A program made the position numbers and the translations under genes. From Podarcis vaucheri (taxonomy: Eukaryota), in NCBI GenBank assembly GCA_965113315.1, contig OZ220382.1: a DNA stretch of 64,000 bases; one strand, 5' to 3'. Of the stretch, positions 6,043 through 55,898 are shown piece after piece. The notes under the pieces are model-generated. The model made no database searches. It worked only from the letters and a program-made list of their open reading frames with translations, and was not told the origin of the DNA. Each line of letters starts with the position of its first letter. The first letter of the stretch is position 1.

Positions 6043-6593
6043 CAGTGTTTCCCAACCGGTGTTCCGCGGCACACTACTGTGCCGTGAGACATTGGCTGGT
6101 GTGCCGTCGGAGGGAGGCGGGCGAGTCGGGCGGTGAGAGGCGGCGGCGGCGAGGATCCGCGTCGAGCCGGGGGTGGCTCCGCGGTGGTGGTGCCGAGCGG
6201 AGGGGCAGCGCGTGCAAAAGGGAGGAGTGCGAGACAGCGGAGGAGGAGGCCAGCATGTCCGGGCAGCAGCAGCAACAACAGCAGCAGCAACTCCCGGCGA
6301 CGGCTCCTCAAGCCCCGCCGCCGCCCCCTCCTCCACCCGCTATCGCCGCCACCACCACAACAGCTGCCGCCGCCTCAGTTGCCGCCGTCCCTCAGTCCCT
6401 CGCTCTGCTGCCTCCTCCCACCCCCAAAGCTTGGAGGTTCCCCGGCAAGGGGGAGGGGAAAAACTTTCACTTTCGTGCGTCCCTCCCGGCATGACGCTGC
6501 GCGCTGACGTCACGGGGCTGTAATGGTGGTGTGCCGCGAGATTTTTTTCCTTAAACAGGTGTGCCGTTGCCCAAAAAAGGTTGGGAAACACTG
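6043..6593. mobile_element. Non-autonomous hAT element (551 bp) with GC-rich gene-like cargo
   Basis: Perfect 15-bp TIR CAGTGTTTCCCAACC/GGTTGGGAAACACTG; exact 8-bp TSD CCTTAAAG at 6035-6042 and 6594-6601; repeated subterminal GTGCCG. Confidence 0.93.
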
Positions 6594-6601
6594 CCTTAAA
6601 G

Positions 6602-7485
6602 GAGTTGGGGCTAAAACTGATGTCATGGAACATAGCAGGCTGTCATTCAAGGCAGATTAATAGACAGCTGATGAACTATTTTGTGCAATTTGATATTATT
6701 CTGCTTCAAGAAACATGGCACAATGACTCTATAATGATTAACGGAAACAAATGTCACTCATTGACAACCACTCCCTCAATGAAAGGTGGTAGGGTCAGTG
6801 GGTGTCTAGCATGTTTCATCTCCACAAAGTTGAATGCAACTACAACAGCCATGATTCCATGTAACCCATTTACAACTGCTGTCTTGGTTGTAGTTTTGAA
6901 AGTATGTTTAATGCTGATTAATGTCTACATACCACCTTGTCAAAAAGTTTAAAAAAAACAACTACTGTAAATACTATATGGACAGACGTAGAGAATTATA
7001 TAGAATCCATGGAATCCCTATATCCTACCACAGTGTTTATCATTGCAGGGGATTTTAATGTACATATGGGAGTTAACGATGTAAATTTGTATAAGATCAG
7101 ATTCTGAAACCAGATATTTACTTAGCCGGAGGTACCTCCCGCCTGTCTAATTACATCATAGATGTAATTATTCAGAGCTTTGTTTAGCCCAAGTTGTAAG
7201 GTGGAGGGACTTGCTAATATTGAACAGCATGATAGAGGGAGATCAATCCGGAGAATATACCCACTTTACAAAGCATGGAGGCAGTGTGACAGATTATATT
7301 GGTGATCTCATGATTTGCATAAGTTTGTCATGGAGTTAAAGCTGGGCAATAATATTGAAAGCAATCATTTACCTCTAACAATGGTACTAGTAGCCCCAGT
7401 ATTTAACAATTCTTCCCCCAAAACTCAATTTATCTCTAATGCAAACTTAGGTGTGACTGCAGGCAATGGAATTAGGTGGACACCA
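6602..7485 (+). mobile_element. Degenerate APE endonuclease domain (ORF2 5' part) of RTE-X-like LINE
   Basis: LKLMSWNIAG, FDIILLQETW, LINVYIPP, IIAGDFN (about 7039-7059), GEYTHFTKHGGSVTDYI, ESNHLPL in the expected order across frameshifts. Confidence 0.85.
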
Positions 7486-8150
7486 GTACACTTAATGCTT
7501 AACTCGTTCCGAGGGTCCTTACATACCCCCAAAAGTCCACAACTTGAGGCACCGTTTCTACGCATGTGAAGTGAAACCCGGAATTATACAATGTGATTGT
7601 ACATGCAATAGCATATGGAAACTTGACCTTGTTCTTTTGAATGAACACTTCTGTTGATTAATGCTAACCTATGATTGCTTTTTTTCTATTCCAGTAATAA
7701 TTATTGCCATCAAAATTTGTTCGATGGAATGGCCAGGCTCATTGTCTAATTTTTCACCTGGATTTACTTTAACTCCTAGTCAAGCAAAATAATGCATGAC
7801 AAAAAGCAACAGTGGGTGCAGATACCTAATTATTTAATACTGTGGCCCCATCACTACTGTAAAAACCAGCTCATTTAAGTCATGATATAAAGCAGAAAAA
7901 TATTAACTGCAAACATGTCAAATACTCTTATGTGCCTTTCAGACATTCCTCACAAGTTGGACCACAGTCCTAGCATTGCAAGTTGTTTTAGTATCCTACC
8001 AGTGCATCAGCTTGTAGCAACAACTGTCTAGCTTCTTAAAGGGTAGTAGCTTATTAAATTTTAACCAAAGAACAGTCTGCATGATGACATGGGGAGTAGC
8101 ATTATAACTTTAGAATAAGCCTTATAAAGGAGACCACAGAAAATACCTAC

Positions 8151-8275
8151 CTTCTTTTCTTCTGGGCAAGGTTAAGCTCCATAAATTTATATTTCTGATA
8201 CTGTTCATCCAATTTCTTGAGTACGGTGTCTGCCGTCTCATTTCCTGGCTGTTTCATAAAGGAATCTACATCTTC
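8151..8275 (-). CDS. VBP1: VBP1 coding exon 2
   Basis: 125 nt, aag|GAAGAT...AGAAG|gtaggt; EDVDSFMKQPGNETADTVLKKLDEQYQKYKFMELNLAQKKR. Confidence 0.97.
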
Positions 8276-9759
8276 CTTCGAGTAGAAACACATTATACAT
8301 AAGTAACTCCCAAAGCTTCAATTCATACAACCATGTGAAGAGTTGGTTGGTCAAGGCCTGGCCTGTTCTGACTTCTTCCAGGGCTGGCATTGGGGACAGG
8401 AATGGCCAAGCACCAGCCAAAGACCCTGCTCCAGTATGAGACCCACTACTGAGAGTCCCCTGGCCCTCCTCACCATTTCTAACCACTTGCTTGCCTACCC
8501 TTTTTTGCTTTTTAATTTCCTAAGTCATTTAGAGACTTCTTATATGTCAGCTGGCTACTAAAATTGAACAAATAACAATAATTCTGCTTTCTCTTCTACA
8601 TTCAAAAGCATAAACAGCATAGTCAAGCAGTAAAATATTTGGGAAGCAAGTCCAAGGTTAGTTTCTCCTTTTAGTATCAATCCCACATAAACAGGTTGCC
8701 TGAAAGGAATGGCAGCTATGCAGCCAGCCCCCTCCCCCCTGGGAATATGCAGACCTATCTAGCTGGCCACTCAAAGCAAACAAATGCCTGTCTAGAGAGA
8801 TGTTCAATATGATCCAGGAGGACTCTTATTCTTCATAATGAATTAGATTCATAAGATAGGAAGACTACAAGGGTTTTTTTTTGGGGGGGGCAGCCAATAG
8901 CAAGGAAATATTACTGCTTTCCGTGTATAATTGGCTACTCAACTACTGGTAGCAAAATGTTAGCATATGGCCTAATAAACCATAGCAAAATGGTAGCAAA
9001 ATGGTAGCATATGGCCTAATAAACCAGTCTCTGTTGCATCACACTGGCGCTCATAGAAGCATAAGGAACTGCCTTACACTGAGCCAGACCATTAGTCCAT
9101 GGAGCTCAGAACTGACTACACTATTTTATTCCCTCTCCTAGTTTACAGTATAAAAGCCCCCCTTCCTGGTCACTTGGAAGCAATTCTTACTTGATCTGAG
9201 CCAGCTCGGCTCTTCTTACAGAAGACAAATCCATGGTACACAGACCTATTAAACCATGACATTATAGCAGTTATAGTTCGCAAGACTAGCACAACCGTGA
9301 AGCTTGTTGGAAACTGACAGTATCTCTTCAGCTAGCTTCCCTTGCAGTGTTGCTTATAAGAACAGGGATGAGGGGGGAAGAGCAACGGGCAGTGTCTTAG
9401 GCTCTCTGGGAGGAAAGGCCGGATGCAGTAAGTACCGGTAAATTACAGACCACGGAACCTTCGCATTAAAAGGCAATCACTCTTGAAATCCGAAGTGGGT
9501 GGGGCGCAAAAAGCAGAAGAGGCTGCCCCCCCCATTCTTGCCCCCATCTTCCCTGCTGGATTTATTTCCCCAGAGGCGTGACACCCAACCTGCCTCTGAA
9601 TACCAGGGGAGCCCTCGCATTCCTGCCTCGTCTGCTGGCAGTCTTTTCCCAAACAAAAAACAGGCTGCTTGTCTTCGACTGACCTGGCAGGGCTTCCTGC
9701 CCGTTCCTTATAATAATAATAAATTAATAACAGTAGGCTACCTTAAAACGCCAGTTACT

Positions 9760-10340
9760 GCAGGGAAGGCCGCCGCCGCCGCCACGTGAAGGTATCAGGG
9801 CCTCCTTACTAACAGGCAGTCTACCCCTAAATGCCAGGTGCCGCAGAGCCTCCGCGCTCCTGCCCCGCGGCGAGGGCGCCGGTCGGAAAAGAGGGTCTTT
9901 GGGGCTGACAGCCTCCCGGACATCATTATTGAGGAGACCCCCCCCCACTCCCCGCTCCCTGTCAAAAGTGAAGCGCATGCGCAACAAGCACACCACGAAG
10001 AACACCCCCCACCCCACCCCACGTTCACCTCAGTACTCGAGGTCCACTCTGGCCCCTCCGCGTGGCTCCCCATTTCCCACCCACCCCGCGCCCACATTTT
10101 TGCTTACTACGAAGATGGCCTCGGGGATGCCCAGGTGCGCCCGTTTCCCGCCCGTTGGTCCGTCGCCGCAAACTGCCTCGCCGACGGTGACCGCCGCCAT
10201 CTTCATGAAGGGAGTAAAAGAATGGGGAGGGAGGGAGGGGGGGAATAGAGCCCGACGTGCTTTTCCTCCCTCGCGCATGCGGATTGGCGTCGAAACTGAG
10301 CTAACCGTAGCCCAGACGTCGCGCGCGCGGGTTCTGAGGA
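9760..10340 (-). promoter_or_regulatory. CpG island / promoter of VBP1
   Basis: Dense CpGs around exon 1; NRF1-type GCGCATGCG at 10273-10281 and perfect GCGCATGCGC at 9973-9982; CCAAT (minus) at 10283-10287; YY1-like AAGATGGCGGC over the start codon. Confidence 0.8.
10108..10200 (-). CDS. VBP1: VBP1 coding exon 1
   Basis: ATG at 10200 in AAGATGGCGG context; encodes MAAV...HLGIPEAIFV; donor GTAAGC at 10107; an in-frame ATG at 10206 would add MK. Confidence 0.95.
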
Positions 10341-10529
10341 GGGGGAGTGGAGGGTCTCCCTGTTGCCTGATAGGTCTTGATTGACTGCCCGAGGGTAAGG
10401 GAGGAGCTTGCCCTGCCATTCTCGTTTTTGGTGTGAAGGTTGTATTGTTGGTGTTAGATGGTGGTGATAATGTGCAGCTACCCCACTAAGAAAGCGAAAG
10501 CCCCTTCGTGATTTACCATATAAATAGGA

Positions 10530-10534
<5 letters not shown>

Positions 10535-10577
<43 letters not shown>
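10535..10577. repeat. (ATT)n microsatellite
   Basis: About 14 perfect trinucleotide units. Confidence 0.95.
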
Positions 10578-10966
10578 GCATAGAAGCAAGGCTGTGTACA
10601 CACTGGGTCATTAAAGCACATTGCTCCACCCCTCAAAGAATCCTGGGAACTGCAGTTACAGGATCGCCATGAAGGATGCCCGAATATTTGTTACTTTTAT
10701 ATCAGACGTTTCCTTCCAAGAGCTCAGTATGATGTATGTATCATTATAGAGTCCTAGAATGGTTGGAAGGGACCACGAGGATCAAACAATCTCTTCCCCT
10801 GCGCTGCCTCTGCAGGAATATTTCGCCCAAAGGGGGGTTTAAACCCACGGCCCCAAGACTAAGGGTCTCATGCTCTTCGGTTTTCCCACTCCCCGTTTTA
10901 TCCGCACGATAACCCTGTGTGGTAGGTTAGGTTGACTGTCAGAGGCGCAACACAGTGAGCCGGTGG

Positions 10967-11402
10967 CAGGGGCACCGACTTATAAAAAATATTGGGGGGG
11001 CCCATACCGGGGTCATGCCCCGGGAGGTTTTCTAAATTTTAGATGAAAATTAGTGAGATTTAAAGTATTTCGGCGGAGCCGGAGCGATTGGGAAGGAGGG
11101 GGCTTGTTGCCGGATTCTTCAGCTGGGCCGGAGATCCGCTGCTCGGGGATCCCTGGGCCGAGTTGTGAGCACGGCCTGCTGAAGGGAGATCCAGCCGATT
11201 GCGCGACGGGGGCGGCCGGGGCTCTCCGGCTAGGGCGCGCGGCTGGCTGGCTGGCTGGCGAGGGAGCAGGTGGGGAGGAGGCGGGGGACGGTGGTGGTGC
11301 TCTGCTGGAGGGGCGCCCGAGATTATTGGGGGGCGGAGCCCCCCCAAACGAATTTTTTAGGGGGCTCGGGCCCCCTCAGGCCCCATGGAGTCGGCGCCTA
11401 TG
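10967..11402. mobile_element. Non-autonomous hAT-like element (436 bp) with CpG-rich interior, inserted into an old MIR-like SINE
   Basis: Imperfect TIR CAGGGGCACCGACTT vs CATAGGCGCCGACTC (reverse complement of right end); 8-bp TSD GCCGGTGG (10959-10966) / GCAGGTGG (11403-11410). Confidence 0.8.
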
Positions 11403-11777
11403 GCAGGTGGGGATTTGAATCCTAGTTTCCACTACATCACATTAGCGGTGGCAAATGCCCCTTGATTATGGTAGGGAGGAAAGGGAGGCAGGGCAACAAG
11501 AGGTGGAGCCAGAGTCAAAGACAAGTAGAGCCGATTGATTCTGTTTTTGTCCCATCCACCTCCCTGCTGAATTCTACAAGGGCAGCACTGAGACTGAAAA
11601 AGAGGAAGATAACAACTACGTAGTTCCACTACCTCCTGGGTTGGTTGTAAGAAGGAAAGGAACTGAGATTGGTGCAGCAGTGCCACCTTAGCCCTTATGA
11701 ACCAACCTCTGATATATCACACTGGTGGCTTTCATAGAAAAACTTCCTTAGACCAAGTCAGACCATTGGTCCGTTTA

Positions 11778-11955
11778 CATAGCTGTCAACTTTCAGATTT
11801 GAAAAAAAGGGATCAGCAGCCTCGAAAATAAGGGATCAGCAGCCTCACCTGTCCCGGGGACAGTCTACAGGATATCTAACAATCCAGGATAGCAGCGGGA
11901 AACGGTGCTGGAACAAGGGAATTTTCCACCAAAAAAGGGACGGTTGACAGCTATG
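11778..11955. mobile_element. 178-bp TIR MITE with 6-bp TSD
   Basis: Perfect 13-bp TIR CATAGCTGTCAAC/GTTGACAGCTATG; CGTTTA on both sides; internal direct repeat AAGGGATCAGCAGCCTC x2. Confidence 0.85.
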
Positions 11956-12357
11956 CGTTTAGCTCAGTATTGTCCACACTGACTGGCAGCAGCTCTCCAA
12001 GTTTCCAGCTGGTGACATTGTTAGCCCTGCCTGGAGATGCCATGATTTGAACCTGAGAACCTGGTGCTCTACCACTGAGCCATGGCCCTTTCCCTTTACA
12101 CATAGATGTAGAAGATCTTTTTAAACGGCTTTTCTGGTGACTCTCACATAGTAATATTAAACTATAAATGTAAAAATAGCAAATACAAGCTACAAGAGGG
12201 GGAGCATTTTGATAAACAGATCTCAACTCTATTTTTAATAGATATGTCTAGTCAGAAGTAAGCTTGATTGAGTTCAATGGGACTTAGGTTCAGGTAAGTG
12301 CATATGGAGTTTCAACCTAAGGCTTCTTATCCTTCATCCTCTGCTGTGCGTTTAACT

Positions 12358-12711
12358 CAGGCATAGAAGAAGAAGAAGAGTTTGGATTTGATATCCCACC
12401 TTTCACCCCCCTTCAGGAGTCTCAAAGCAGCTAACATTCTCCTTTCCCTTCCTCCCCCACAACAAACACTTTGTGAGGTGAGTGGGGCTGAGAGACTTCA
12501 AATAAGTGTGACTAGCCCAAGGTCACCCAGCAGCTGCATGCGGAGGAGCAGAGACGCGAACCCGGTTTACCAGATTACAAGACTACCGCTCTTAACCACT
12601 ACACCACACTACAACTCCCATCATCCCTAGCTAACAGGACAGGTGGTCAGGGATGATGGGAATTGTACTGTAGTCCCAAAACGTCTGGAGGGCAGAGTTT
12701 GCCTATGCCTG
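12358..12711. mobile_element. hAT MITE disrupted by a SINE
   Basis: Termini CAGGCATAG/CTATGCCTG; exact 8-bp TSD GTTTAACT (12350-12357, 12712-12719). Confidence 0.85.
12365..12610 (-). mobile_element. tRNA-derived SINE (Squam3-like)
   Basis: A-box TGGTGTAGTGG, B-box GGTTCGCGTCT, CORE-like body, (TCT)n tail; near-identical to 16917-17168. Confidence 0.85.
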
Positions 12712-12912
12712 GTTTAACTGTTTATCATGTGTCCCCTTTTGTTACATTGAAGTTATTTAGTTACTTTTTATCATGTGTTATCATATGACATCCTATGCCC
12801 TTTTAAAATATGGGTTGGGGGGTTATTGTTTTTATTTTGATTATGTATTTTGTGGATTAAATTTTGATTTTATTCTGTGAACTGCCCTGAGACCGCTGGG
12901 TATAGAACTGTA

Positions 12913-13157
12913 CAGTGATACCTCGGGTTACATAAGCTTCAGGTTACATACACTTCAGGTTACAGACTCCGCTAACCCAGAAATAGTACCTCGGGTTAAG
13001 AATTTTGCTTCAGGATGAAAACAGAAATCGTGCGGTGGCGGCACAGCAGCAGCAGCGGGAGGCTCCATTAGCTAAAGTGGTGCTTCAGGTTAAGAACAGT
13101 TTCAGGTTAAGAACGAACCTCCGAAACGAATTAAGTACTTAACCCGAGGTACCACTG
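12913..13157. mobile_element. Tc1/mariner (Tigger-like) MITE
   Basis: TA|CAGTGATACCTCGGGTTA...TAACCCGAGGTACCACTG|TA; same family as 39127-39368 and 54366-54594. Confidence 0.9.
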
Positions 13158-14270
13158 TATATAAATTCAATAAAGAATAATATCAGTTGTCTCATTCTAC
13201 ATGATTTACTATACTGTATAAATGAAAGGAAAAATAGTATCAAACAATGTGATACACAGTTGTTAGGTGGTTTAGTGACATTTTATACAAATTCCAGCAA
13301 TCAAACCTTAGCCTGAGATCATAAGCCACTGCCAACTCCAGGCTTAGATGGAGCATTGGTCTGAAGACTCCTCAGAGACTCAGAGTGTGGTCTCTGGCCA
13401 ACAAAAGCTTATAGTGTAACAAGTATGTAAAATAGTCCTGTATCAGTGATTCCCAAACTTGAAAATTAATGAGTGTGTTGGTGGACCACTTAAAATAGTT
13501 TTTCTGCCCATTGCAGCAATTGTAACGCATTTGTGTTAGATGCCATATTCATTTTAATTTTATTTTTATTGCTTCTATTTTGATATGTTTGCTTCCTTTC
13601 ACTTGTTTTCCTGGCTCCTAATCTTCTCCACTCCTTTTAAATCTCTCCCTCCTGCTCTTCTGTATTCTTAATCCTCCCCACTCCTTTTAAATCACTTCCT
13701 CTTGTATAAGATCCTAATCCTCTTCATTTCTTTCAAGTCTCTCCCCTTGCCAGAGGATTGCTGGGTTCTCAGAATGAGCAGCTGCTGCACCCACTGTTCT
13801 TCACAGCCATGCTGTGGACCACCTGAGTGATGCTCATAGAACTCTAGCACTCAACTCTATTGTTTATGATGTCCCCTTGGAATACTCTGGGCCACTGTGA
13901 GAATATGTCTCCCAGCCCAGCTGCCCAGGACTGGTAAGGGCCCTGCTACTCTGATGTAAGCCTGCCAGAGCTCTCATGAACACGGAAATAGGGCCATGAG
14001 GTTATTTCATTGAGGGCCTCCCTCAAATCTAGAACCAGCCCTGCTAAGATCAGCCAGAGTTTGCACCAGAGTCCACTTCCTCTGTTTAGCACCTCAATGC
14101 CCAGCAGTCTCCTTGCCCGAGCTCAGAGCTGGCATTGAGGACTCCCAGACTGCTATTTCTGGGCAACTTCAGCATCCATGCCAAGGCGATTTGCTCCCCA
14201 TTTGTGAATGCTCTCTATACAGAGTATCACCTGGCACCTTCATTACATATCTTTAGATGCCAGGAATGTA

Positions 14271-14439
14271 CCGTATTTTTCGCTCTATAACATGCACCCG
14301 ACCATAACACGGACGTAGTTTTTAGGGGAGGAAAATCCGTAGGCATGCCACCCGTAGGCATTTCCTCCATAACACGCACAGACATTTCCCCTTACTTTCT
14401 AGGAGGAAAAAAGTGAGTGTTATGGTGCAAAAAATACGG
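14271..14439. mobile_element. Short Tc1/mariner (pogo-like) MITE, 169 bp
   Basis: TA|CCGTATTTTT...AAAAATACGG|TA; termini shared with the 1.3-kb element at 54597-55898. Confidence 0.88.
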
Positions 14440-16363
14440 TATATCTCAACTAGGTATTTTCTCTTCAACCATGGCTTTTTAAATGGTTTTTTTTGGGGGG
14501 GCTGTTACGTTTGTTTTTCGTGTATTATGTAGCTTGAATTCTAATTTTGTATTTTTATGTTGTGAACCGCCCTGTGACCTTTGGATGAAAGGCAGTATAC
14601 TGACTAAATAAATAAGACAAGGAGGAAGAACATGTACCATTCATAACCAGCTACCCACCCAGATATGTGGTTTGCAAGCTTGCTACCTCTCTTCTCTCAC
14701 ACATCCATTCTTGTTCCATAGGAATTTCAAGTCTATATACATTTGATGTACACAATTTGCTTTCCATATCATTGATGCTAATACATACCAGTAACTTTTA
14801 CTAACTTCACAGCTTGGGTCCTGCTTTGGGTGTTTCATGAAACCAAGTGAAGTGAGAGGTGGCATTTTCAGCAGTGACAGCACCCTAGTTATGGACTAGT
14901 CTTCACAAATAAATTTATTTGACACCATCACTGTGGTCTTTTCAGATTCAGGTGAAGATCTTTCCGATAGCCTAAATTATCTAAAAGCCCTAGGTAATCT
15001 GGGCATATTACACACACACACACACACACACACAGCTTTTTTTCTGGGGATATGCAGGGGTACACATACCCCTAAACGTTTTGTGAATCTTTGTACTTTT
15101 GTCCATTTAATGTATTTATTTTTCCTGATTTGAACTATAAAATGGTGATTTTCTTGAGTCAAAATGAGAGTACTATTTCAATTGTTTTTTTGACATTTAT
15201 TGTTAAGTTGCCCAGAGAACTATGTTGTTGGGCCACACACAAACACAATAAAAATAGTTTCTGTACTGTGAAACCGATTCCAGTAGGAATGCAATTATGA
15301 ATGAGGCATAATTTGAGGCTTTTAATGGCACAATAAATGAGTGATGAGAGAGTTAAAACCGTAGGTCTTTGTTTATATGCATTTTTCTGCCTAAGGCCCT
15401 CATTTCATATATGGATATGTGGTATGAGAATGAATGTATTTTGTACATGGGAATAGCTTCCAGTAGACAAAGCTAAACTTAGAAAGCAACTCTAATATAG
15501 TACAAATTTCCAGTTGGTTCCAAGGCAAACAATGCAGGTATAAGCTCTAAATTTTACTTTAACATAAAATTAGAATACACAACCAAGGTGTTATAGGCCA
15601 AGAAAATAAGAAGTTAGGCAATGTGGTGGGGAAGGTGTGTACACTCACCTGCTTGCATTGAGAGATGATGTACTTTGGTTTTTGATAGCTAGGTTCATTA
15701 TATGTATGCAAAACTTGAAGACAACTTCCTAGCTTTCATGTCATTCTGTAACAGCCTGTAAATATGCACATATACCTGAAACAACCATGTAGTGCATCCT
15801 TTTTTACTGCCTATGCTATTTCTGCTGTAACAAATTTTGGATTGGGTCAGGGACCTGTTTTATTGTGATTTGTAAGGCACTAGTCACTGGTGGAGCTATA
15901 TAAATAATAATAAAAAGGGTAAGGCAGTTCTTAAGTTGAAGAAAAATGTAAGTAATTTACCAGAATTGCCAACCATAAACATTGACACAACTACTTAATT
16001 CCAAAAGTGACAGTACACTAATAGATTTGATAGGTTCAACTGAAAGGTCACACAGACATTCAGCCCATTCACTTCTTGGTAGCTTCTTAGCTGGTCCTAC
16101 TCAAAAGGATTAAATCTACTGATTTTGGGGAACGTTTTATTCTACTGGTTTGACATTGGCTACCTGAACCATTAATGAAAATGTGTATCCCTTTTGGAAG
16201 AGCCCTTTGGTTCATTAGCCATCCTTAAACACCCAATGCCAATGGCATGAAATAAAACAATAAATGCTTTTAAGTGTTGCTGGTTGACCTGCACCATTGG
16301 CTGAAATGAAACACTGCTTTTAAGAAAAATATTAAAACACACACCCAAGACACTTTGTGCCAG

Positions 16364-16369
16364 TTTATT
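16364..16369 (-). terminator. Candidate distal polyadenylation signal of the PICALM-like gene
   Basis: Minus-strand AATAAA followed by GTGTCTTGGGTGTGTGTTTTAATATTTTTCTT, a GU/U-rich downstream element. Confidence 0.5.
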
Positions 16370-20100: not shown

Positions 20101-21193
20101 TTTTCTCTGAATACCTGTGGGAATCACAACCCTGACCTACCAGTCTAATTATCAAACTATAAAAGTATCAAACACAACTAAAGCCAGGACACACCAATCT
20201 TAAGATTTAGACTGTGACCCTAAATACAATGGAAACAATGAAACAAAAACAGATGAAATAAATCTGCCTTCGTTTTGTAGCTTTTAAAATGGCAGCCTTG
20301 TAGCACTGCCTTAAGGATAGCACCGCCTTAAGGATAATCTTGTGACAAGACCACCACCACATTGCTTCACCTGCAAATATTTCAGGACCACAAACACATA
20401 TTTGCAGTCAACCCGTTAATGGCCAAATCACTATGGCAACCTTCCACAGCTTGGCGCCTCCAGATGTTTTGGACTACAACTACCATCAGCCCCGCCAGCA
20501 TGGGAAGGTTGCCCTAAAATAATGAATAATAGAAATGATACCAATATATTAATAAGGAAGGAGTTGTTCTCTAAAGTCAGTATCTTTGAGAAGGCAGTAG
20601 GTTGGTCAGCATCTTACTCTCACAATAAATTTACAAAACGATGTCATATGCAGTGCAATCCTGTCCTGAGTTTAGTTGAGTTGCTATTTTTATAGTTAGC
20701 TTTAACCTGCTAATATATCTAATAGGGAAGCAGCAAATGTCAAGTATGTATGATGGACATCTTATTGGCTTTTAAAAACCTTTAAATACATATAATCTAA
20801 CATTATTCAGACAGTTCAATTATAAACACCACTAATACCACTGTAAACAACCTTTCGCCAACTGGAAGTTGAAAATAGTACAGCTACCTGTACTTTTAGC
20901 ATTTCTGGCAAGACGAATAAAAGTGTAATTCTGGCAACAGCAACCCCAAATGCAGTTTCAATAATGTTAACAGTGACCACCATCTAACTGCTAGGGTCAG
21001 CTATTAAAAAAAGATGCAATCTTTCAGCAAGGAAATGAGTGATAAACCCACCTCCACAGAGATAGGAGAGTTCAAATTCTCCAGATTTGGCACAGAAAGT
21101 GGTGCTAGCAGTTGTGACCAAACTGTTATTTTGGTTTTCCATAAGGACAGACAATTCCCTAAAGACCCAGTGTGGCTGTAGGGATGACTAGCC

Positions 21194-22113
21194 CAGGTAC
21201 GAGGGGGGGGGGAGAGGGCGGTCTGCCCTGGGTGCCACCCTAACATGGGGCGACAAAATGGCAGGCAGCACTCGTCACCGCGGGGCTTGCAGCACACACA
21301 AGCCACATATCTCAGCGCCCACAGGCTCTGTACTGTCCACCTGCCTCCCCCCCCCCAGCTGTAGGGTGGCTGAGGCCCCAGTGTGCGCCCCGTCCCTATG
21401 GGCACTGCGCGCCCCGTCTCATCCCTAAGGGCACAGTCTTGTCCCTATGGGCACTGTGCGCCCCATGGCGCTCGGTGCCCATAGGAATGGCACAGGGTGT
21501 GCGGCAGTGCCCACAGGGACGCAGCGCGTGGCAGTGCCCATAGTGACGGCACGGGATGCTGAGCACCCTGTTCCGTCCCTATGAGCACCCCACCCCTATG
21601 AGCAGTTTGCCCCGCCCCTATGGGCACTGCGCGCCCTGTCTCATCCCTAAGGGCACAGTCTTGTCCCTATGGGCACTGTGCGCCCCATGGCGCTCGGTGC
21701 CCATAGGAATGGCACAGGGTGTGCGGCAGTGCCCACAGGGACGCAGCGCGTGGCAGTGCCCATAGTGACGGCACGGGATGCTGAGCACCCTGTTCCGTCC
21801 CTATGAGCACCCCACCCCTATGAGCAGTTTGCCCCGCCCCTATGGGCACTGCGCGCCCCGTCTCATCCCTAAGGGCACAGTCTTGTCCCTATGGGCACTG
21901 TGCGCCCCATGGCGCTCAGTGCCCATAGGAATGGCACAGGGTGTGCGGCAGTGCCCACAGGGACGCAGCGCGTGGCAGTGCCCATAGTGACGGCACGGGA
22001 TGCTGAGCACCCTGTTCCGTCCCTATGAGCGCCCCACCCCTATGAGCAGTTTGCCCCGCCCCTATGGGCGGTTCACCCCACCCCACGTGCCTGAAAGGCT
22101 TCCTCCACCACTG
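21194..22113. mobile_element. Non-autonomous hAT-like element (920 bp) with internal tandem array
   Basis: Exact 8-bp TSD GACTAGCC (21186-21193, 22114-22121); CAG...CTG termini, left TIR degenerate; GC-rich block in AT-rich flanks. Confidence 0.8.
21394..22068. repeat. 222-bp tandem repeat, 3 near-identical copies
   Basis: CCCTATGGG unit start recurs at 21394, 21616, 21838, 22060; duplicate ORFs offset by 222. Confidence 0.95.
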
Positions 22114-38609: not shown

Positions 38610-38644
<35 letters not shown>

Positions 38645-43011: not shown

Positions 43012-43053
43012 CTGAGTAAGATCTGGAATGTCACCCTGATCAATTCCAACTTG
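43012..43053 (-). CDS. PICALML: PICALM-like exon 8
   Basis: 42 nt; QVGIDQGDIPDLTQ. Confidence 0.94.
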
Positions 43054-45137: not shown

Positions 45138-45259
45138 CTGCGTAAAAAGCAAAAAGATTTTTTTAGTCAAATCACTAGAAAGTGAAATCACAACACATTT
45201 TTCACCCTCCATAAAGCTTATCATGGATTGTAGTAATAAATAACAGCTACAGTGCTTAC

Positions 45260-45353
45260 ATCAAAATCGAGAAGTGCATCTAGTTGATTCTGAATAATTG
45301 GGAGTGTTTTCAGAAGTTTTTCAGTATTCATTGTTCTCATCACACCATCAATC
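45260..45353 (-). CDS. PICALML: PICALM-like exon 5
   Basis: 94 nt; [31 protein letters not shown]. Confidence 0.96.
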
Positions 45354-45819
45354 CTTCAAAATAAAATAGAAAATAAACCAAACAAATACAATCATTGAAC
45401 ACACTATTATGGTATCCGATGTCAGCACTACAGATTATATCAAACAAAGAGGACTCTACTGCTGCCCATTGAAATCAGTGGGACTTTTGAATAACATATA
45501 TAGAATAGTATTTTCCAAAGTTCTGCATCAAATTATTCCATATAAAATACTTTAAAGAATATTCTGATCTCCCAAAAGGTTCAAACTTATACCTAAAAGT
45601 TTATGCAAGCTGTTGCAACAGTGCCACTGAACATTTTATGTACTGTCAGATTCAATGCTCCAAAAGTTGCATTTTTCTATCACTGCATACTTCAAATTTC
45701 ACATCAGAACATGTTTTTTTGCACAAATTTCCAAACTCTGTTTTGACAATTTTGCTTTCTCAAACACTTTGATGCCCATCCAGTCACTAGAAGAGCATAA
45801 AAATAAATGGAATTCTTAC

Positions 45820-45922
45820 CCTCTTTTCATTTTGGTGAAATCAACTGCTACAAGTCTGTAAGAAAGTGCTTTTTCATTCAAGTATCTGCTGTATCGTCTG
45901 ATGAAAGTAGACATATCATAGC
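45820..45922 (-). CDS. PICALML: PICALM-like exon 4
   Basis: 103 nt; [33 protein letters not shown]. Confidence 0.96.
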
Positions 45923-47814: not shown

Positions 47815-50527
47815 TCAGATCAAAGTAAAAGAATTTTGAATGAGAAAATAACAGGACAAGAAATAGAGGACGCCATTCAGAAGATGAAACTGGGAAAATC
47901 TCCAGGCCCAGATGGCTTGACTGCTAGATACTACAAGGCACTGAAGGATTGGTTAATACAACCACTGAAGGAAGTTTGTAATGAAATTTTGGAAGGGAAA
48001 AAGGCACCCGAATCGTGGAAAGAAGCTTTTATTTCACTTATACCGAAAGCAGAGGTTGAAAAGAACCAGGTCAAAAACTACCGCCCTATATCATTACTCA
48101 ATGTGGATTACAAAATCTTTGCAGACATTTTAGCAAAAAGATTGAAGAGAGTATTGGTGCAGGAGATTCATAAGGACCAAACAGGCTTTCTCCCAGGGAG
48201 ACATATGTCAGACAATGTAAGGAACATTATAGACATTTTAGAGTTGTTGGAAGTTAACATTAATAGAAAGGCAGTGATAATTTTTGTGGATGCGGAGAAA
48301 GCCTTTGATAACATTGGTTGGACCTTTATGAAGAAGAATCTCCAAGGGATGGGGGTAGGCCAAAGATTTGAAAACGGTATAGGTGCTATATATTCTAAGC
48401 AAAAAGCAAAGCTGATTGTTAACAATGTGGTAACGGAAGAGATTCCTATAGAAAAAGGTACACGACAGGGATGCCCAATATCACCCTTACTTTTTATAAC
48501 AGTCCTGGAGGTTTTGCTGAACATGATTAGAGGGGACCAATTGGTTAAAGGCGTTCAGCTCGGAGCAAAAGACTACAAATTAAGGGCGTTTGCAGATGAT
48601 TTGGTACTGACGTTGCAACAGCCAGAGACTAGTACTAAAAGGGTCTTAGAACTAATTGAGAATTTTGGTCAAGTAGCAGGATTTAAACTGAATATGCAAA
48701 AAACTAAAGTGTTAGAGAAAAATCTAACAATGGCAGAAAAAGACAAGTTTCAGAAGGAAACAGGTTTAACAATAACAAAAAAGGTGAAATATCTGGGTGT
48801 GAACTTGACTTCTAAAAATGTAAACCTATTTAAAGACAATTATGTTAAATGTTGGACAGAGGTGAAGAAAGATCTAGAAATATGGTCAAGATTGAAACTC
48901 TCCTTGTTAGGCCGAATTGCTGTCATTAAGATGAATGTATTGCCTAGGATGTTGTTTTTATTCCAGACACTCCAGATCTTAGATAAGATGGACTGTTTCA
49001 AGAGGTGGCAAAAAGACATATCAAAATTTGTCTGGCAGGGTAAAAAGCCCAGAATAAACTTTAAGATTTTAACTGATGCAAAAGATAGAGGGGGTTTTGC
49101 CCTGCCGGACTTGAGACTTTATTATGAATCGGCAGCTTTTTGCTGGCTGAAACAATGGCTACTTCTTGAGAATACAGACATTTTGGATCTGGAAGGGTAT
49201 GATAATAGATTTGGCTGGCATGCATACATATGGTATGACAAGGTAAAATTGCATAAAGGCTTTAAAAACCATATTGTGAGGAAAGCACTGTACAATGTTT
49301 GGATAAGATACAAAGATTTGCTGGAAAGTAAAACCCCTAGGTGGTTATCACCAATGGAGGCTAAAGAGGTAAAAAAACTAAATATGGAGTCCAACTGGCC
49401 AAAATATTCTGAAATTTTAGAACAAGATGGTGAAAGAGTTAAATTGCAGAGTTTTGACAAATTAAAGTCTAAGGTGCGAAATTGGTTGCATTACCGTCAG
49501 ATAAATGAGGTATTTAAACAGGACAGGAAAATAGGTTTCCAGAGGGAGAGGTCGAAATTAGAAACAGAACTGTTAGAACCCAATACTAAGAACCTGTCGA
49601 GAATGTACAATTTGCTGCTGAAGTGGAATACACAAGATCAAGTAGTAAAACCAGCCATGATTAAATGGGCACAAGACATAGGTCATGACATAATGATTGA
49701 TGACTGGGAACAGTTATGGAATACAGGTATTAAGTTTACAGCTTGTAATGTATTAAGAGAGAATATAATGAAAATGATCTATAGGTGGTACATGACCCCA
49801 GTCAAACTTGCAAAAATTTACCATCTGCCCAGTAATAAATGTTGGAAATGTAATGAGACGGAAGGTACCTTCTATCACCTTTGGTGGACCTGCCCGAAGG
49901 TAAAGGCCTACTGGGAAATGATCTATAATGAAATAAAAAAGGTCCTTAAATGGACATTTTTGAAAAAGCCAGAGGCCTTTCTTCTGGGTATGGTAGGCCA
50001 ATTGGTGCCAAGGAAGGACAAAACATTTTTTATGTATGCTACCACAGCGGCAAGAATTCTTCTGGCAAAGTATTGGAAGATGCAGCAGCTACCTACTCTG
50101 GAAGAATGGCAAGCGAAGGTGATCGAATATATGGGAATGGCAGAAATGACCGGCAGAGTCCGCGACCAGGGGAGAGAGACGGGGAAGAAGACTGGAAGAA
50201 ATTTAAAAAATATCTTAAAGACTGTTGTAAAATTGATGATGCTTGAGATGTTACGGTTATAAGAAATAGAGAACTGCAGCTGTAAACTATAATCTTAAAG
50301 AATGTACAAAGAAAATGAGCGAATTAACTGAACGAAGGGTTGCTGAGAAGGGGTTAATATAAGGATGCAGAAAAAGGGAGGTATGGGGAAGTCCGGGAAA
50401 GAAGGTTTTGAAAATAAGTTTAAGAAATTATACATGTTTATTTGTTTGTATGTCTTGTAGGGTTTGTTTTGTTATTTGTTTTATTATATGTTTGGAAAAT
50501 TAATAAAAATTATTATAAAAAAGAAAA
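47815..50527 (+). mobile_element. 5'-truncated young L1-clade LINE in PICALM-like intron 3 (antisense)
   Basis: RT ORF, 3'UTR, AATAAA near 50501 and A tail; TSD AAGAAAAGATC (47804-47814, 50528-50538) at a TT|AAGA site. Confidence 0.93.
47836..50262 (+). CDS. L1 ORF2 fragment: reverse transcriptase and C-terminal zinc knuckle (no endonuclease)
   Basis: GKSPGPDG, NYRPISLLNVDYKI, VDAEKAFD, GTRQGCPISPLLF, AFADDL, KYLGV, CWKC...HLWWTC; likely frameshift near 50180. Confidence 0.9.
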   Translation: MNEKITGQEIEDAIQKMKLGKSPGPDGLTARYYKALKDWLIQPLKEVCNEILEGKKAPESWKEAFISLIPKAEVEKNQVKNYRPISLLNVDYKIFADILAKRLKRVLVQEIHKDQTGFLPGRHMSDNVRNIIDILELLEVNINRKAVIIFVDAEKAFDNIGWTFMKKNLQGMGVGQRFENGIGAIYSKQKAKLIVNNVVTEEIPIEKGTRQGCPISPLLFITVLEVLLNMIRGDQLVKGVQLGAKDYKLRAFADDLVLTLQQPETSTKRVLELIENFGQVAGFKLNMQKTKVLEKNLTMAEKDKFQKETGLTITKKVKYLGVNLTSKNVNLFKDNYVKCWTEVKKDLEIWSRLKLSLLGRIAVIKMNVLPRMLFLFQTLQILDKMDCFKRWQKDISKFVWQGKKPRINFKILTDAKDRGGFALPDLRLYYESAAFCWLKQWLLLENTDILDLEGYDNRFGWHAYIWYDKVKLHKGFKNHIVRKALYNVWIRYKDLLESKTPRWLSPMEAKEVKKLNMESNWPKYSEILEQDGERVKLQSFDKLKSKVRNWLHYRQINEVFKQDRKIGFQRERSKLETELLEPNTKNLSRMYNLLLKWNTQDQVVKPAMIKWAQDIGHDIMIDDWEQLWNTGIKFTACNVLRENIMKMIYRWYMTPVKLAKIYHLPSNKCWKCNETEGTFYHLWWTCPKVKAYWEMIYNEIKKVLKWTFLKKPEAFLLGMVGQLVPRKDKTFFMYATTAARILLAKYWKMQQLPTLEEWQAKVIEYMGMAEMTGRVRDQGRETGKKTGRNLKNILKTVVKLMMLEMLRL

Positions 50528-51419
50528 AAGAAAAGATCAAATCCAGGCAAGCACTGAATGCATTGTGGAAGGGAGGTAAACTTCATGGTGCGCTGAGAGC
50601 AATCAAAGAACTCAGAGGAGAGTTCCTCTGTCCTGCTGCTGATGTTGGTTAGTGATATAGTGAGGCTGTAACACTTTATAGCACCATAGAGTCATGTGGG
50701 ATATCAAGCTGTGTTGGCTGCAATACAAATCCTGGCTATTGCAACAAACCATGGTTTAGTGGTACATGCAAACAAGGCCAATATTTTACCCAGTAAGTAT
50801 CAACCCTTGCTTTCTGGAAAATCCTGGATGCTTACAAAACTGATCCTATCCATGTTTACTTGGAAGTAAGTCCAACTTTCCTCTAACAAGACTTACAGAT
50901 AAATAAATATACTTGGATAATATCCTCAGCCTTCAGATAAGTTATCTTACTTAGGAACCATGAAGATGTACAGAGAGCCAGTCAGAAATATGCATCTTAT
51001 CCCTAAGCAGATATAATTCTGAGGTGAATGTCAGGTTCATGATGAAATTTTATGCAATTATAGCTAGTATAAATGCTCATATTAATTTGATTTATTTGTT
51101 TCCCAATACAAAACATATCAGAAATATTCTAAGGCCACACTCCTAGATACTTACTTTGTTGTGAAGTTTACTAAAGTCAGTGGGACTTCCATACTTACAA
51201 ATCCTGGACTGGACTACTGGTCTACTAGAGCCAATGAGTGAAACTGCAGAATACACCTGGATGCAAACTTCAATAAATAAAAGAGCATGCCTCTCCAATA
51301 CAATTTGGATACATTAATGGGTTTATTTAAGATGACTGAATTTCTAACATTCCTTTAGCCCATAGAAGTTATTCTGCAAATTGCAATCTGCCTCAGAATA
51401 GAAAGTAAAAAATTCTTAC

Positions 51420-51495
51420 CCTGCATGGCACTTTTATCCAGATAGTTGTTGAGATTAAACAGGGTATTTCGAGATGCCAAGTATTGGATAAAACG
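51420..51495 (-). CDS. PICALML: PICALM-like exon 3
   Basis: 76 nt; RFIQYLASRNTLFNLNNYLDKSAMQ. Confidence 0.96.
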
Positions 51496-52934
51496 CTGTT
51501 TGAGAAAGAATTAGATTCCAGATTACTTCATTTATTTTTTTCCCCATAGACATAACCGTGTTAAGAGAAACTAGTTTCTACGCAGCTGTATAAGGCATAT
51601 CTAAAAGCAGGAGGGGAATCTAATACTAAGACAAGCAAATTAGATCTACTATCAAGCCTGATTTTTTCAATCACTGCTCAGGAGAGCCAGAATTGGAACT
51701 GAGTTGTGCAACAAGGGCCAATGTGTAACACAATTGACAGCCACCATGTTGTGCAAACTCTGATGTGAAGAAAGGATAACGGCAGCAGAACTTGTTACAC
51801 ATTACGCCTTTGCATAAAATTCATTTATATGTGGCCCACATCACAGCAGGGTTATGAAAAGATACAAACATGGTTCCGAGGCTATTCTTTAGTGACGCAC
51901 ATGCAAACTCTCCATCTACATGGAATAGGGAAATGAAGCTAGTATAAACTACAGACAAATACATTCTCCTCCTCCCCCATTGCCAACACCTTCAACGCTC
52001 ATCACATTTACAGCAAGATGACATGACTAAGGAACTATTCACTCATTCACTCATTGTCCCTTGGGATTGTTCCAGCCGTGAGATAGAGAATGCACCCTGC
52101 TCCCTCTTACCACTGACAGGAGTTATCAACCATACTTGGGAGGTCTGTGCTTATTTGATTGCTGCATCTCCCCAATCCCATGAGACTGAATCCACTAGAA
52201 AGCAAGTTATACCCTGTAATTTCAAGGAAATTCAGTTTTTCAAATTGAAGTGGGATCTACTCAAGCACTTCTTATTTTATTGTGAGAAGAAATTTAGGGG
52301 AGTTGATTGGGGCAAATGAGACCAAGGCCTGCTCCTGATTCCACCATGAATAGACTTTCAAGGGCTAAGTAATGAATGAAAAAGCTCCAAGCTTATTCTC
52401 CAAAAACAGTTCCTGTACAATTCTGTGAAGAGTGAGATGGTTGTAGAAAAGCTTATTGTTCAAATTCACCCCAATGTGTGTAGGTATATATGTGTTATAA
52501 TGAGATGTGTATTAAATTCATTTCCGATTCAGACTTCCGTAGGAATATTTCTAATCTAGCCAAATGCAACCTGACACATAGTTTCCACAACTGCTAGATA
52601 CAGAAAAGAGTTCCTGCACCTTTGAGTATATGTATAAATTTCTCCTACAGAAATGAAAAGCTATACCAGCAGTTCAATGCTGACAATTCATTCATTTAAT
52701 ACAATCACTAATTTAGCAATCTGAGTATTTTAAAGGCAGCGGCAGGGGGGTTATTGCTAATTTCAGGCTTTCGTACTTGCTTACTAATAGGTGAGGCAAC
52801 AGGATAGACAATTCAGACTGGTATTTTTAAATTGTTCTCTCTCACCATCATTTCAGAGATCACCAGCACTTCACATCTGAATGTTTTCCTACCATTAAAC
52901 ACAATGTTCTATGGCAAATTGACTACTGTCTTAC

Positions 52935-53077
52935 CTCATTTCCATACATCATGAGGTGGTGTGTTGTAATTAGAGCTTTGAACACTACTACCCAGCTACT
53001 GTTTGCTGTCCTCTCAAAAAGTGTGTCTGCCAGCTGTGGAATATTCACATTCATCTCATTTGTGCACTGAATAAGAT
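52935..53077 (-). CDS. PICALML: PICALM-like exon 2
   Basis: 143 nt; [47 protein letters not shown]; tag|...|gtaag. Confidence 0.96.
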
Positions 53078-53204
53078 CTAAAATATAAGAAAACAAGATA
53101 ATTTACTTAAAACAAATATGGGAAAATGTGACAAAAACAGCAGGGCAAATGTTTTTATTTAGTGCCTTAAATATTTTGCAGGTGTTATACATAAGTGGGA
53201 AATA

Positions 53205-53559
53205 CAGTGGTGCCCCGCAAGACGAATGCCTCGCAAGACGAAAAACTCGCTAGATGAAAGGGTTTTCCGTTTTTTGAGCTGTTTCGCAAGACCAATTTCC
53301 CTATGGGCTTGCTTCGCAAGATGAAAACGTCTTGCAAGTTTGTTTCCTTTTTCTTAACACCGTTAATACAGTTGGAACTTGACTTCGAGGAGCAACTCAT
53401 AGAATGCGGTGTGGTAGCCTTTTTTTGAGGTTTTTGAAGACTTTGATGATTTTTGAAGCTTTTCCAAAACTTTCCTGACACCGTTCTTCGCAAGACGAAA
53501 AATTCGCTAGACGAAAAAACTCACGGAACGAATTAATTTTGTCTTGCGAGGCACCACTG
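53205..53559. mobile_element. Tc1/mariner (Tigger-like) MITE
   Basis: TA|CAGTGGTGCCCCGCAAGAC...GTCTTGCGAGGCACCACTG|TA; internal CGCAAGACGAA repeats. Confidence 0.9.
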
Positions 53560-54044
53560 TACGCTTAAGAAGCCTCTCATTAGGAATCTGGCCTGCAAGC
53601 AATCTGGTTGCCAGTCCATTCTTTCCTCATTCCCTAACCTCACATTCTCCAGGTTTCTGCCATTTCTTCTTTAACAATAACTATGCACTCCAGGGGTACG
53701 GGGGGGGGGGAGAGAAACAGGCTTAAATAAATCCCAAATGCTGCTTTCCTTTTGCATATCTTTCAGTATCAAGTTGCTCCCTTTTCTCTTTTTCATTAAT
53801 TCCTTGCACTGGTAAAGACAATACTTCAAGCTTTCTAAAACCAGTCTCTATATTAAGCTCTGTGCCTTTCTGACACCCAACCTTTGGTTAAAAATAGTCT
53901 CACAGAGCCACAGCATGCAAGCAGGTGCTGAAAAGAGTGTGCTACCAACTCAATAAAGAAAAATAAAGTGTATTATCTTGAAATAAATAAGTGTTCTCTC
54001 TTCCCAAGAGGAGGAATAAAAGATGTGAGCATTGACTATAGGCA

Positions 54045-54094
<50 letters not shown>

Positions 54095-54365
54095 ATTTCT
54101 ATACTATCATTCATCAGAAGATCACAGGGTATTTTAGGAAAATGGTAAATGACCCCTGGATAGTTAAGTCCAGTCAAAGGTAACTATGGGGTACGGTGCT
54201 CATTTTACTTCAGGCCGAGGGATCAGCTGTTTGTCCACGGACAGTTTTCTGGGTTATGTGCCCAGCATGACTAAACTGCTTCTGGTGCAACAAAGCACCA
54301 TGACAGAAGCCAGAGTGCACAGAAACGCTGTTTATCTTCCCTCCACAGCGGTACCTATTTATCTA

Positions 54366-54594
54366 CAGTGGTACCTTGGGTTACAAACATCTCAGGTTAC
54401 AAACACTTCGGGTTACAGACTCTGCTAACCCGGAAGTAGTACCTCAGGTTCAGAACTGTGCCTGCCCCAGGATGAGAACAGAAATCGTGTGCTGGTGGCA
54501 CAGCAGCAGTGGTAGGCCGCATTAACTAAAGTGGTACCTCAGGTTAGGAACGGACCTCCGGAACGAATTAAGATCGTAACCAGAAGTACCAATG
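54366..54594. mobile_element. Tc1/mariner (Tigger-like) MITE
   Basis: TA|CAGTGGTACC...AGTACCAATG|TA. Confidence 0.88.
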
Positions 54595-54596
54595 TA

Positions 54597-55416
54597 CCGT
54601 ATTTTTCGCTCTATAACACGCACCTGACCATAACACGCACATCGTTTTTAGAGGAGGAAAACAAGGGAAAAAATATTCTGAATGAAACAGTGGACGTATC
54701 ATTTTTGTGCTTCATGCTGTGGCCACAGACATGTGATCTGATGGTGAATTTAGGGTGACCCAATGCAAAAATCCTGAGAATCCCTGTGGATCCATGCTTT
54801 GTAACCATGTTTTTGCACCATTGCAGCCCCAGGCAACAGTGGGTGCGTGATTTTTTTTTGGGGGGGGGGACAGGCTGTAGCCATGGACATGCTATGTGCT
54901 CTGATGGTGAATTTTGGCTGACCCAATGCAAAGATCCTGAGGATCCATGTGGATCCATGCTTTGTAACCACGTTTTTGCACCATTGCAGCCCCAGGCAAC
55001 AGTGGGTGCGTGATTTTTTTTTTGGGGGGGGGACAGGCTGTAGCCATGGACATGCTATGTGCTCTGATGGTGAATTTTGGCTGACCCAATGCAAAGATCC
55101 TGAGGATCCATGTGGATTCATGCTTTGTAACCACGTTTTTGCACCATTGCAGCCCCAGGCAAGAGTGGGTGCGTGATTTTTTTGGGGGGGGGCAGGCTGT
55201 AGCCATGGACATGCTGTGTGCTCTGATGGTGAATTTGGGGTGACCCAATGCAAAGATCCTGAGGATCCATGTGGATCCATGCTTTGTAACCACATTTTAA
55301 GTGGGGAGGGAAGGAAAAACACAGAAGGCTAAGAATGCAGGAGAGGGCTATAACGTGAGGAAAGGAAGGCAAAAGTTTCCCCCCACCTACCCACACAAGC
55401 CAGCCAGCGTGTGCTT

Positions 55417-55462
<46 letters not shown>

Positions 55463-55898
55463 TTTAAATGGAAGAAAGCATATTTGAATGCTGTGTGTCT
55501 CCAAAAACAAAAAGCAGGAAGTCAAATCAGAATTTTAAGCCGAACCTGTAATCTCTCTTCCCTTCACAAACATTGTTCCTCCGGAGCAGGGAGAGGATAG
55601 AAGGACGGACGCTCTGCTTTCCTCTCTTCTTGCCTGGAGGGGAGGGGCTTCCCCTGCTCTTTGTTCCGTTTGAGCAAACACAGTAACGAAACAGAGAGGG
55701 CGGGCAGTAAGACCCTGAGGCAGAATGCAGGAAAGCTGCCACTTCCTCTCTTCAGGCTTCCCTTCTCCCTGAAGCGCGGTTTGATTTTTGCCTCATTTTT
55801 CGGCTCCAGGGACCACACATTCGCTCCATAACACGCACAGACATTTCCCCTTCCTTTTTAGGAGAAAAAATCTGCGTGTTATAGAGCGAAAAATACGG
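54597..55898. mobile_element. 1.3-kb non-autonomous Tc1/mariner (pogo-like) element with tandem array and unrelated interior
   Basis: TIR CCGTATTTTTCGCTCTATAACACGCA/TGCGTGTTATAGAGCGAAAAATACGG; TA TSD. Confidence 0.92.
54738..55293. repeat. About 163-bp tandem repeat, 3.4 copies
   Basis: CTGATGGTGAATTT recurs at 54738, 54901, 55064, 55223. Confidence 0.95.

Follow-up and report, generated by a model that had tools for sequence, protein, structure and literature searches.

The window analysed here is a 64,000-nucleotide stretch of the genome of the lizard Podarcis vaucheri (NCBI GenBank assembly GCA_965113315.1, contig OZ220382.1; G000:C42:25730001-25794000), in which an earlier note had singled out four non-autonomous DNA transposons, here E1 to E4, as recurrent carriers of captured host sequence. 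We find it very probable that E1 and E2, both of hAT type, carry DNA copied from single host CpG islands and then multiplied by cut-and-paste transposition, and that E3 and E4 are ordinary elements. E1 and E2 are true Pack-TIRs, that is, transposons with terminal inverted repeats (TIRs) around captured host DNA, and the picture is one of a small number of captures that were later copied en masse, as opposed to four captures made independently.

The E1 cargo matches the first coding exon of RANBP9, which lies in a CpG island at C27:33.787 Mb. Two blocks of the element align to this exon: the majority sequence of the family agrees with the donor at 72/73 positions in block 1, plus a 9-nt difference in poly-Q length, and at 65/70 in block 2; the two blocks meet where 87 nt of the donor are deleted, at a direct repeat of 6 nt. 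E1 retains 149 of 230 donor bases. The two-block match (82 + 70 nt of the majority) scores 199 versus at most 57 in 100 triplet shuffles, and the best match in 590 kb of unselected sequence reached 46 bits versus 103+96 bits at the RANBP9 donor. This donor was reached by synteny: guided by a presumed RANBP9-NOL7 neighbourhood, we located a gene with a NUC129 domain and examined the adjoining 200 kb. A search with PF10607 was not useful for this purpose, its matches being other exons (which we take to be GID8-, RMND5- and MAEA-like) and not RANBP9. The donor exon encodes Ran-binding protein 9 (PDB 7nsc/5ji7, E 1e-37), and the alignment to the mammalian chain spans the captured Pro/Ala part. Since the exon is homologous to mammalian RanBP9 it predates the element, so that the transfer went from host to transposon.

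All 30 fetched E1 copies are full length and have their own target-site duplication (TSD) at 7/8 or better, with the central TA in 29/30, and the mean identity to the majority is 99.2% among these best-scoring copies (window copy included). Some subfamilies carry extra cargo deletions (L111, L142, L223). Both E1 ends fit the YARNG with which hAT TIRs begin (PMC3014272). The captured piece lies inside one exon and is compatible with an RNA template as well as with DNA, and RNA reads (from related or same-species runs) that leave E1 at 6312 run on into donor sequence. The GC-rich segment upstream of block 1 is possibly another captured 5' untranslated region (UTR). The 79-codon frame that starts at the captured RANBP9 ATG is open in 30/30 fetched copies; because the copies are young this is not a sign of selection, and we rejected the frame as a new gene for the same reason. 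Its product gave no match in a protein search, which is weak evidence for a sequence of such low complexity, and no usable match in a protein atlas.

Three further observations concern E1-type sequences. A 1.28-kb element at L309:4526-5806 (G000:C1:119354526-119355806) has E1-type ends and a perfect 8-bp TSD, and its 1.05-kb GC-rich interior, with what we take to be ZNF143-like motifs, has the look of a promoter together with a first exon, its splice donor and an intron; it is likely another capture. Contigs of two other organisms (2 and 1, respectively) match E1 across the cargo junctions, and an RNA origin of these contigs is a guess. Finally, ten reads of RNA run X23 on window positions 6000-6640 join an E1-type right end to a left end with five letters between them, as could be seen with copies in tandem or with the joined product of an excision.

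E2 carries a piece of a CpG island on C37. All 20 fetched loci (window copy included) are complete with their own TSD at 7/8 or better, and 18 of them, after exclusion of one long form and one unparsed copy, average 98.4% identity to the majority, again among best-scoring copies. The C37 donor sits inside a 2.3-kb island (GC 0.68; CpG observed/expected ratio, o/e, 0.91) without transposon ends; the window form retains 253 donor bases, and the majority agrees with the donor at 250/251 aligned sites. The private part of a 607-bp E2 form with a longer interior (L047) is present at 9 places, of which 8 have E2 ends and one has none, and the match at the end-free place (C37:34.592 Mb) covers exactly the L047 interior, positions 52-525. 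A 1209-bp form carries an extra 615 bp from the GPR155 CpG island. This piece is found at 7 places, namely 6 element copies and one end-free locus (C1:119.358 Mb, 95.4%) at a CpG-island edge 6 kb upstream of a GPR155 coding exon, and it was added serially into the first, C37-derived piece. A 342-bp subfamily (1227 candidates; TSD in 21/25 parsed copies, 30 fetched) keeps 32 bp of the C37 donor. The captured pieces of the E2 family are contiguous genomic island DNA, one of which runs into an AT-rich likely intron. Pfam was run on 141 and 73 frames around the C37 island, and nothing there exceeded a curated cut-off. A degenerate pattern meant to exclude E2 copies was discarded, as its 37 matches belonged to an unrelated repeat family.

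The native parent of E2 is also present in the genome. A search for the hAT dimerisation domain (64 matches, 150 of 369 candidates being scored) turned up an element of 5115 bp that has E2 ends, a TSD of its own and a transposase frame that is open. Three transposase copies of the E2 family (L306, L315 and L316) are 98% alike and contain the hAT transposase domains PF05699 and PF14291. In L315, which is free of cargo, the 5' region is AT-rich and includes a TATA-like box. Both L306, in which a 727-aa frame with both domains is open from its own ATG, and L316, in which the frame is broken, bear cargo at the junction common to every E2 form among the MITEs (miniature transposable elements with inverted repeats). 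The order in these two is 109 bp of C37 island, a 2.38-kb insert, six further donor bases and the native 5' UTR. Host DNA stands in place of the native promoter in both, one of them with an intact frame. The E2 ends start CAGGG and CATAG, as compared with the hAT YARNG.

The 2.38-kb insert (L306:600-2983; also in L316) is flanked by a 7-bp duplication, is CpG-rich in its first 1.2 kb and has almost no match in the fetched loci; it could be a driver or a disabler of the transposase. The genome also holds another young transposase-bearing hAT (L300:1618-6543, G000:C28, and L299; 99.7% between both copies) whose ends are those of an abundant MITE family; across the sampled stretches this family has several interiors, a GC-rich interior of ~420 bp recurring in three.

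Searches with the element interiors returned 1792 first-look candidates for E1, 1759 for E2 and 949 for E4, of which the best 40 each were scored. In 940 kb not selected for these families (600 kb evenly spaced and 340 kb beside donors or other matches) there are three E1 copies and one copy of the E2 cargo, which extrapolates to about 5,000 copies of E1 (95% range 1,063-15,062) and 1,700 of the E2 cargo (43-9,572). We estimate that E1 and E2 are young high-copy families of roughly 1,000-5,000 copies. Their interiors (149 bp in E1 and 257 bp in E2) fall within the 100-5000 bp of non-transposon sequence that define a Pack-TIR, each has a parent of at least 90% identity that is not flanked by the element's own ends, and each exists as several copies with distinct TSDs far from that parent. 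No remnants of E1 or E2 ends were found within ~300 bp of any donor junction (scores 20-30). Although the biological definition fits, both families fail the published pipeline filters of a unique top hit and an interior 80-120% as long as the parent (PMC8277862), the top hits being family copies and the E1 ratio 149/230, so this pipeline would miss both.

How the captures came about can be outlined from the donors, their lack of transposon ends, the common E2 5' junction, the cargo-free autonomous element, the distinct TSDs and the serial addition, all of which were shown. Each piece was likely taken up once, when the repair of a broken transposon, through gap repair or template switching, drew on host DNA as its template, and gap-filling and fork-switching models of capture have been described (PMC8277862). 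In the simplest history, a transposase-bearing E2 element exchanged its promoter for 471 bp or more of the C37 island, and deletion, insertion (one further capture) and replacement then turned it into the forms of 436, 607, 1209 and 342 bp. The families with captured DNA would then have been amplified by ordinary cut-and-paste transposition, after which inserted copies were probably methylated in the germ line and their CpGs decayed.

Several points weigh against this account. The copy numbers are estimates, and the 600 kb of evenly spaced stretches by themselves hold E1 once and E2 zero times; divergence was taken from best-scoring copies, so that family age is understated. We infer the capture step and did not observe it. 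The main 5' junction is blunt, and microhomology is limited to certain others, with 6 nt at the 3' junction of E2, which has a small further deletion, and 6 nt at the internal deletion of E1. At C37 the direction from host to transposon is suggested by structure alone. About 200 bp of the E1 GC-rich interior matched no donor, none surfaced for the remaining interior of the 342-bp subfamily, itself high-copy, and none was found for any part of E3 or E4. The 40 transposase loci examined (30 + 10) of the 64 hAT matches, with 150 of 369 candidates scored, included no autonomous partner of E1 or E3, nor of E4, for which no search for DDE/D transposases was made.

The earlier note had gone further, proposing that all four elements are cargo carriers that disperse working mini CpG islands and satellite seeds, which we consider distinctly improbable. 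Its description of the elements was partly borne out: all four are real, with TSDs and terminal repeats where it had placed them (E1, TIR 15/15 and TSD CCTTAAAG 8/8; E2, TIR 11/15 and TSD 7/8; E3, TSD GACTAGCC 8/8 and TIR just 7/15, with ends CAGGT/CAGTG; E4, TIR 15/15 in a 29-nt arm and TSD TA). Chance does not account for these ends, since every one of the four elements is a member of a family scattered through the genome, with a separate TSD at each copy, and the four are mutually unrelated as claimed, a comparison of part against part giving zero cross-matches at E<=1e-5. Of the further statement that they are GC- or CpG-richer than their flanks, the CpG half does not hold at E4. E1 has a GC content of 0.67 and a CpG o/e of 0.87 (flank values 0.30/0.30), E2 has 0.64 and 0.80 (left flank 0.79, because it is a VBP1-like CpG island; right flank 0.24) and E3 has 0.66 and a moderate 0.52, whereas E4, at GC 0.49 and o/e 0.37 versus flanks of 0.33/0.44, is a bit GC-richer but not CpG-richer, and we rejected it as a CpG-island carrier. 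Four elements in 64 kb had also been taken to imply many genome-wide. However, evenly spaced genome stretches of 600 kb hold 37 hAT-type TIR+TSD elements (1 in 300 kb of shuffled control), or ~1 per 16 kb, so four transposons in 64 kb is normal density, and three of the four come from families for which there are ~950-1,800 first-look candidates. We therefore rejected element density as a sign of many captures. The de novo scan itself overlooked E3, with its weak TIR, and paired window positions 20731 and 22669 probably by chance.

Capture of CpG-island or 5'-gene sequence, as the note had proposed, holds for E1, E2 and the longer E2 relatives with GPR155-island DNA, but no donor emerged for E3 or E4; conversely, the internal tandem arrays it described are present in E3 and E4 (3.5 units of 163 bp in the latter) and absent from E1 and E2. 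The E3 array was found in the window copy alone, which points to a recent local triplication. Two distinct E3 relatives among 14 loci were parsed with perfect TSDs; the array unit has 14 non-self matches (68-88%), and those examined lie within related old elements, with no end-free donor found. The E4 family is very young, with 0-1 mismatches in 336 bp among 20 fetched copies (window copy included), all flanked by TA/TA and 949-1752 bp long. Its unit number differs among members (about 1-7 by motif count), which would favour satellite seeding; however, E4 is CpG-poor, and arrays of 2-7 units stay within elements, with no long array seen. The best 40 of the 949 E4 candidates are copies at 99-100%, a background against which a donor would be hidden, and none was found among them. 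For both E3 and E4 the likeliest reading is an ordinary non-autonomous element with internal repeats that grow through slippage or unequal repair.

A bias towards islands would also favour dispersal of working islands by such elements, and all three traced pieces lie in CpG islands versus ~5% island-like sequence in the 600-kb sample, with the limit that two of the three donors were sought because they are GC-rich and just the GPR155 piece was found blind; the promoter-like interior of the 1.28-kb element with E1-type ends points the same way. The fate of the copies argues otherwise. CpG transitions affect 48/3533 sites in E1 (1.4%) versus 1/7645 non-CpG C/G sites (0.013%), and 66/1259 in E2 (5.2%) versus 17/3853 (0.44%), so that the supposed mini islands lose CpG at 12-100 times the non-CpG rate, whereas the C37 donor has no comparable decay (one site off the majority). 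Such an excess is a signature of germ-line methylation, and most copies are therefore likely silenced and fading, not new islands; judging by this sequence pattern, E1 and E2 copies are likely methylated in the germ line and silent. RNA reads carry family-majority letters and fall on both strands at the element ends, a pattern that read-through of numerous intronic copies would give; in the cargo, RANBP9 mRNA makes up at least part of the strand-biased signal, and no copy was shown to be a transcription unit. Routine capture by all such elements, working mini islands and satellite seeding were thus not shown. A broader proposal seems to us unlikely: hATs of these lizards would systematically acquire CpG-island promoters and first exons, and the cargo, which stands in for the native promoter in one intact transposase copy, would aid the element, with cargo-bearing forms amplifying more than others; the RANBP9 start and other gene starts would in this way reach thousands of sites, some of them working as new promoters or first exons.

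Two other explanations are much weaker still than dispersal by all four elements. It is highly improbable that the interiors are plain deletion derivatives of autonomous transposons without host DNA, the outcome that the earlier note had named as fatal to its own proposal. Most non-autonomous hAT families of Anolis are indeed deleted autonomous elements (PMC3014272, in its accessible part), the E2 ends (82 and 98 bp) do have an autonomous hAT as their source, and 109 bp of the interior is present in two of three transposase copies; however, L315 has a promoter region of its own and lacks the interior, the E2 interior matches a single end-free CpG island and that of E1 a conserved coding exon. 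The existence of a native autonomous element without cargo means that E2 is not a plain deletion derivative, and we regard this explanation as refuted for both E1 and E2. That the donors are instead end-stripped transposon copies taken over by the host we find scarcely credible, for although E1 and E2 copies sit a few to tens of kb from two donors, RANBP9 exon 1 is homologous to mammalian RanBP9 over the captured part and has 87 nt, in frame, that the cargo lacks, each of the three donors passes without a break into a larger island and shows no remnant of ends or TSDs, and exact loss of both ends from elements so young is unlikely.

Table 1. Positions of the four elements, their captured segments and arrays, and one short element with E4-type ends in the window.
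Feature	Position	Strand	Description
E1	6043..6593	+	Non-autonomous hAT with Charlie/Buster-like ends and nnnTAnnn-centred TSD; Pack-hAT with RANBP9 exon-1 pieces
E1 upstream GC-rich segment	6108..6232	+	5' of the RANBP9 piece; matches just other E1 copies (1.72 Mb fetched)
E1 captured block 1	6233..6311	+	End of RANBP9 5' UTR plus the start codon and the codons that come first; donor at L114:7353-7425 (G000:C27:33787353-33787425)
E1 captured block 2	6312..6381	+	RANBP9 poly-Pro/Ala stretch; donor L114:7513-7582
E1 chimeric frame	6255..6494	+	79 codons, from captured RANBP9 ATG into non-RANBP9 interior
E2	10967..11402	-	Non-autonomous hAT; native 3' end (10967-11064), host CpG-island DNA, native 5' end (11322-11402)
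E2 captured CpG-island DNA	11065..11321	+	257 bp; donor L209:1712-1964 (G000:C37:34592556-34592808)
E3	21194..22113	+	Old hAT-type copy; relatives 68-88% alike and 420-518 bp where parsed; 476 bp minus extra units
E3 array	21387..22069	+	222-bp unit x3.1; units differ at 2-3 sites
E4	54597..55898	+	Tc1/mariner-type non-autonomous element, by TA target duplication and TIRs
E4 array	54731..55298	+	163-bp tandem repeat; CpG o/e 0.15
Short element	14271..14439	+	169 bp; E4-type ends without the long E4 interior

The window contains a gene for prefoldin subunit 3 (VBP1), on the minus strand, with first exons and a CpG island at 8150-8281 and ~10110-10206. E1 lies within an intron of this VBP1-like gene and E2 ~760 bp upstream of its start codon. 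A remnant of ~3 kb at 2570-5700, a retroelement that from its sequence appearance we take to be like a long interspersed nuclear element, explains the GC- and CpG-rich stretch left of E1. A fifth hAT-type element, absent from the earlier list, occupies 12358-12711 with a perfect 8-bp TSD. E4 is nested (54250-56050): it stands at a TA bordering a TA-flanked element (~54366-54594) that itself interrupts a repeat resembling a short interspersed nuclear element.

Gene capture by transposons has precedents in animals and plants, here compared as far as the accessible parts of the reports describe them. Tan et al. 2021 (PMC8277862) list four multicopy Pack-TIRs among a set of reference genomes, with a GC bias for the multicopy cases; one of them, Pack-hAT-N8_XT of a frog, carries cargo from the CAPSL 5' UTR in 3 copies, and the anole has 0 Pack-TIRs in a build with no hAT annotated. 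Like E1 and E2, Pack-hAT-N8_XT has hAT ends around a GC-rich 5'-gene piece, a distant end-free parent and distinct TSDs, but E1 and E2 are estimated at 1,000 copies or more per family, and E2 shows serial captures and has a known native autonomous parent. In Anolis carolinensis, hobo_AC and hobo-N take up genomic DNA and reach 16-689 copies per family (Novick et al. 2011, PMC3014272). These too are lizard hATs, autonomous and non-autonomous, that acquire genomic DNA and keep transposing; they differ in that their filler is known by old transposon fragments, their TIRs begin TAGGCTT and, in the accessible text, no single-copy gene or CpG-island donor is named. In bats, Helitrons have brought promoters and first exons to copy numbers of a thousand or more; HelibatN3, for example, carries the promoter of NUBPL together with its exon 1 (Thomas et al. 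2014, PMC4224331). The preferential and sequential capture of gene 5' ends, followed by amplification, resembles E1 and E2, although HelibatN3 is a rolling-circle element without TIRs or 8-bp TSDs and E1 and E2 are cut-and-paste hATs. Plant Pack-MULEs and Pack-TYPE elements are TIR elements with GC-rich gene pieces from several loci. They belong to plant superfamilies and usually have a low copy number per cargo, whereas the lizard has few cargos at MITE-like copy number; the plant elements also show a GC and 5' bias (PMC8277862). One further report (PMC2872659) was set aside as not comparable in its accessible part. Lizard hATs that capture DNA and bat Helitrons that capture 5' ends are thus already in print; what is new are high-copy Pack-hATs with named donors and a preserved parent, far above the few-copy animal cases. 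The open literature, as distinct from subscription journals, Dfam and Repbase, which were not covered, yielded no report of RANBP9 capture or of a thousand-copy vertebrate Pack-hAT.

In the published picture, cut-and-paste gene capture in animals is rare and almost always single-copy. In this lizard, single host CpG-island pieces, including the RANBP9 start codon and first codons, are now the bodies of MITE families estimated at about a thousand copies or more. Repeat libraries would absorb such families as transposon, and Pack-TIR pipelines would discard them. When repeats are masked, such families can hide real promoters and first exons, and they can also disturb the mapping of reads at RANBP9, GPR155 and the C37 locus. 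Finally, the E2 parent, the cargo-bearing transposase copies and derivatives at 98-99% identity make the capture mechanism and its preference for GC-rich 5' sequence testable.

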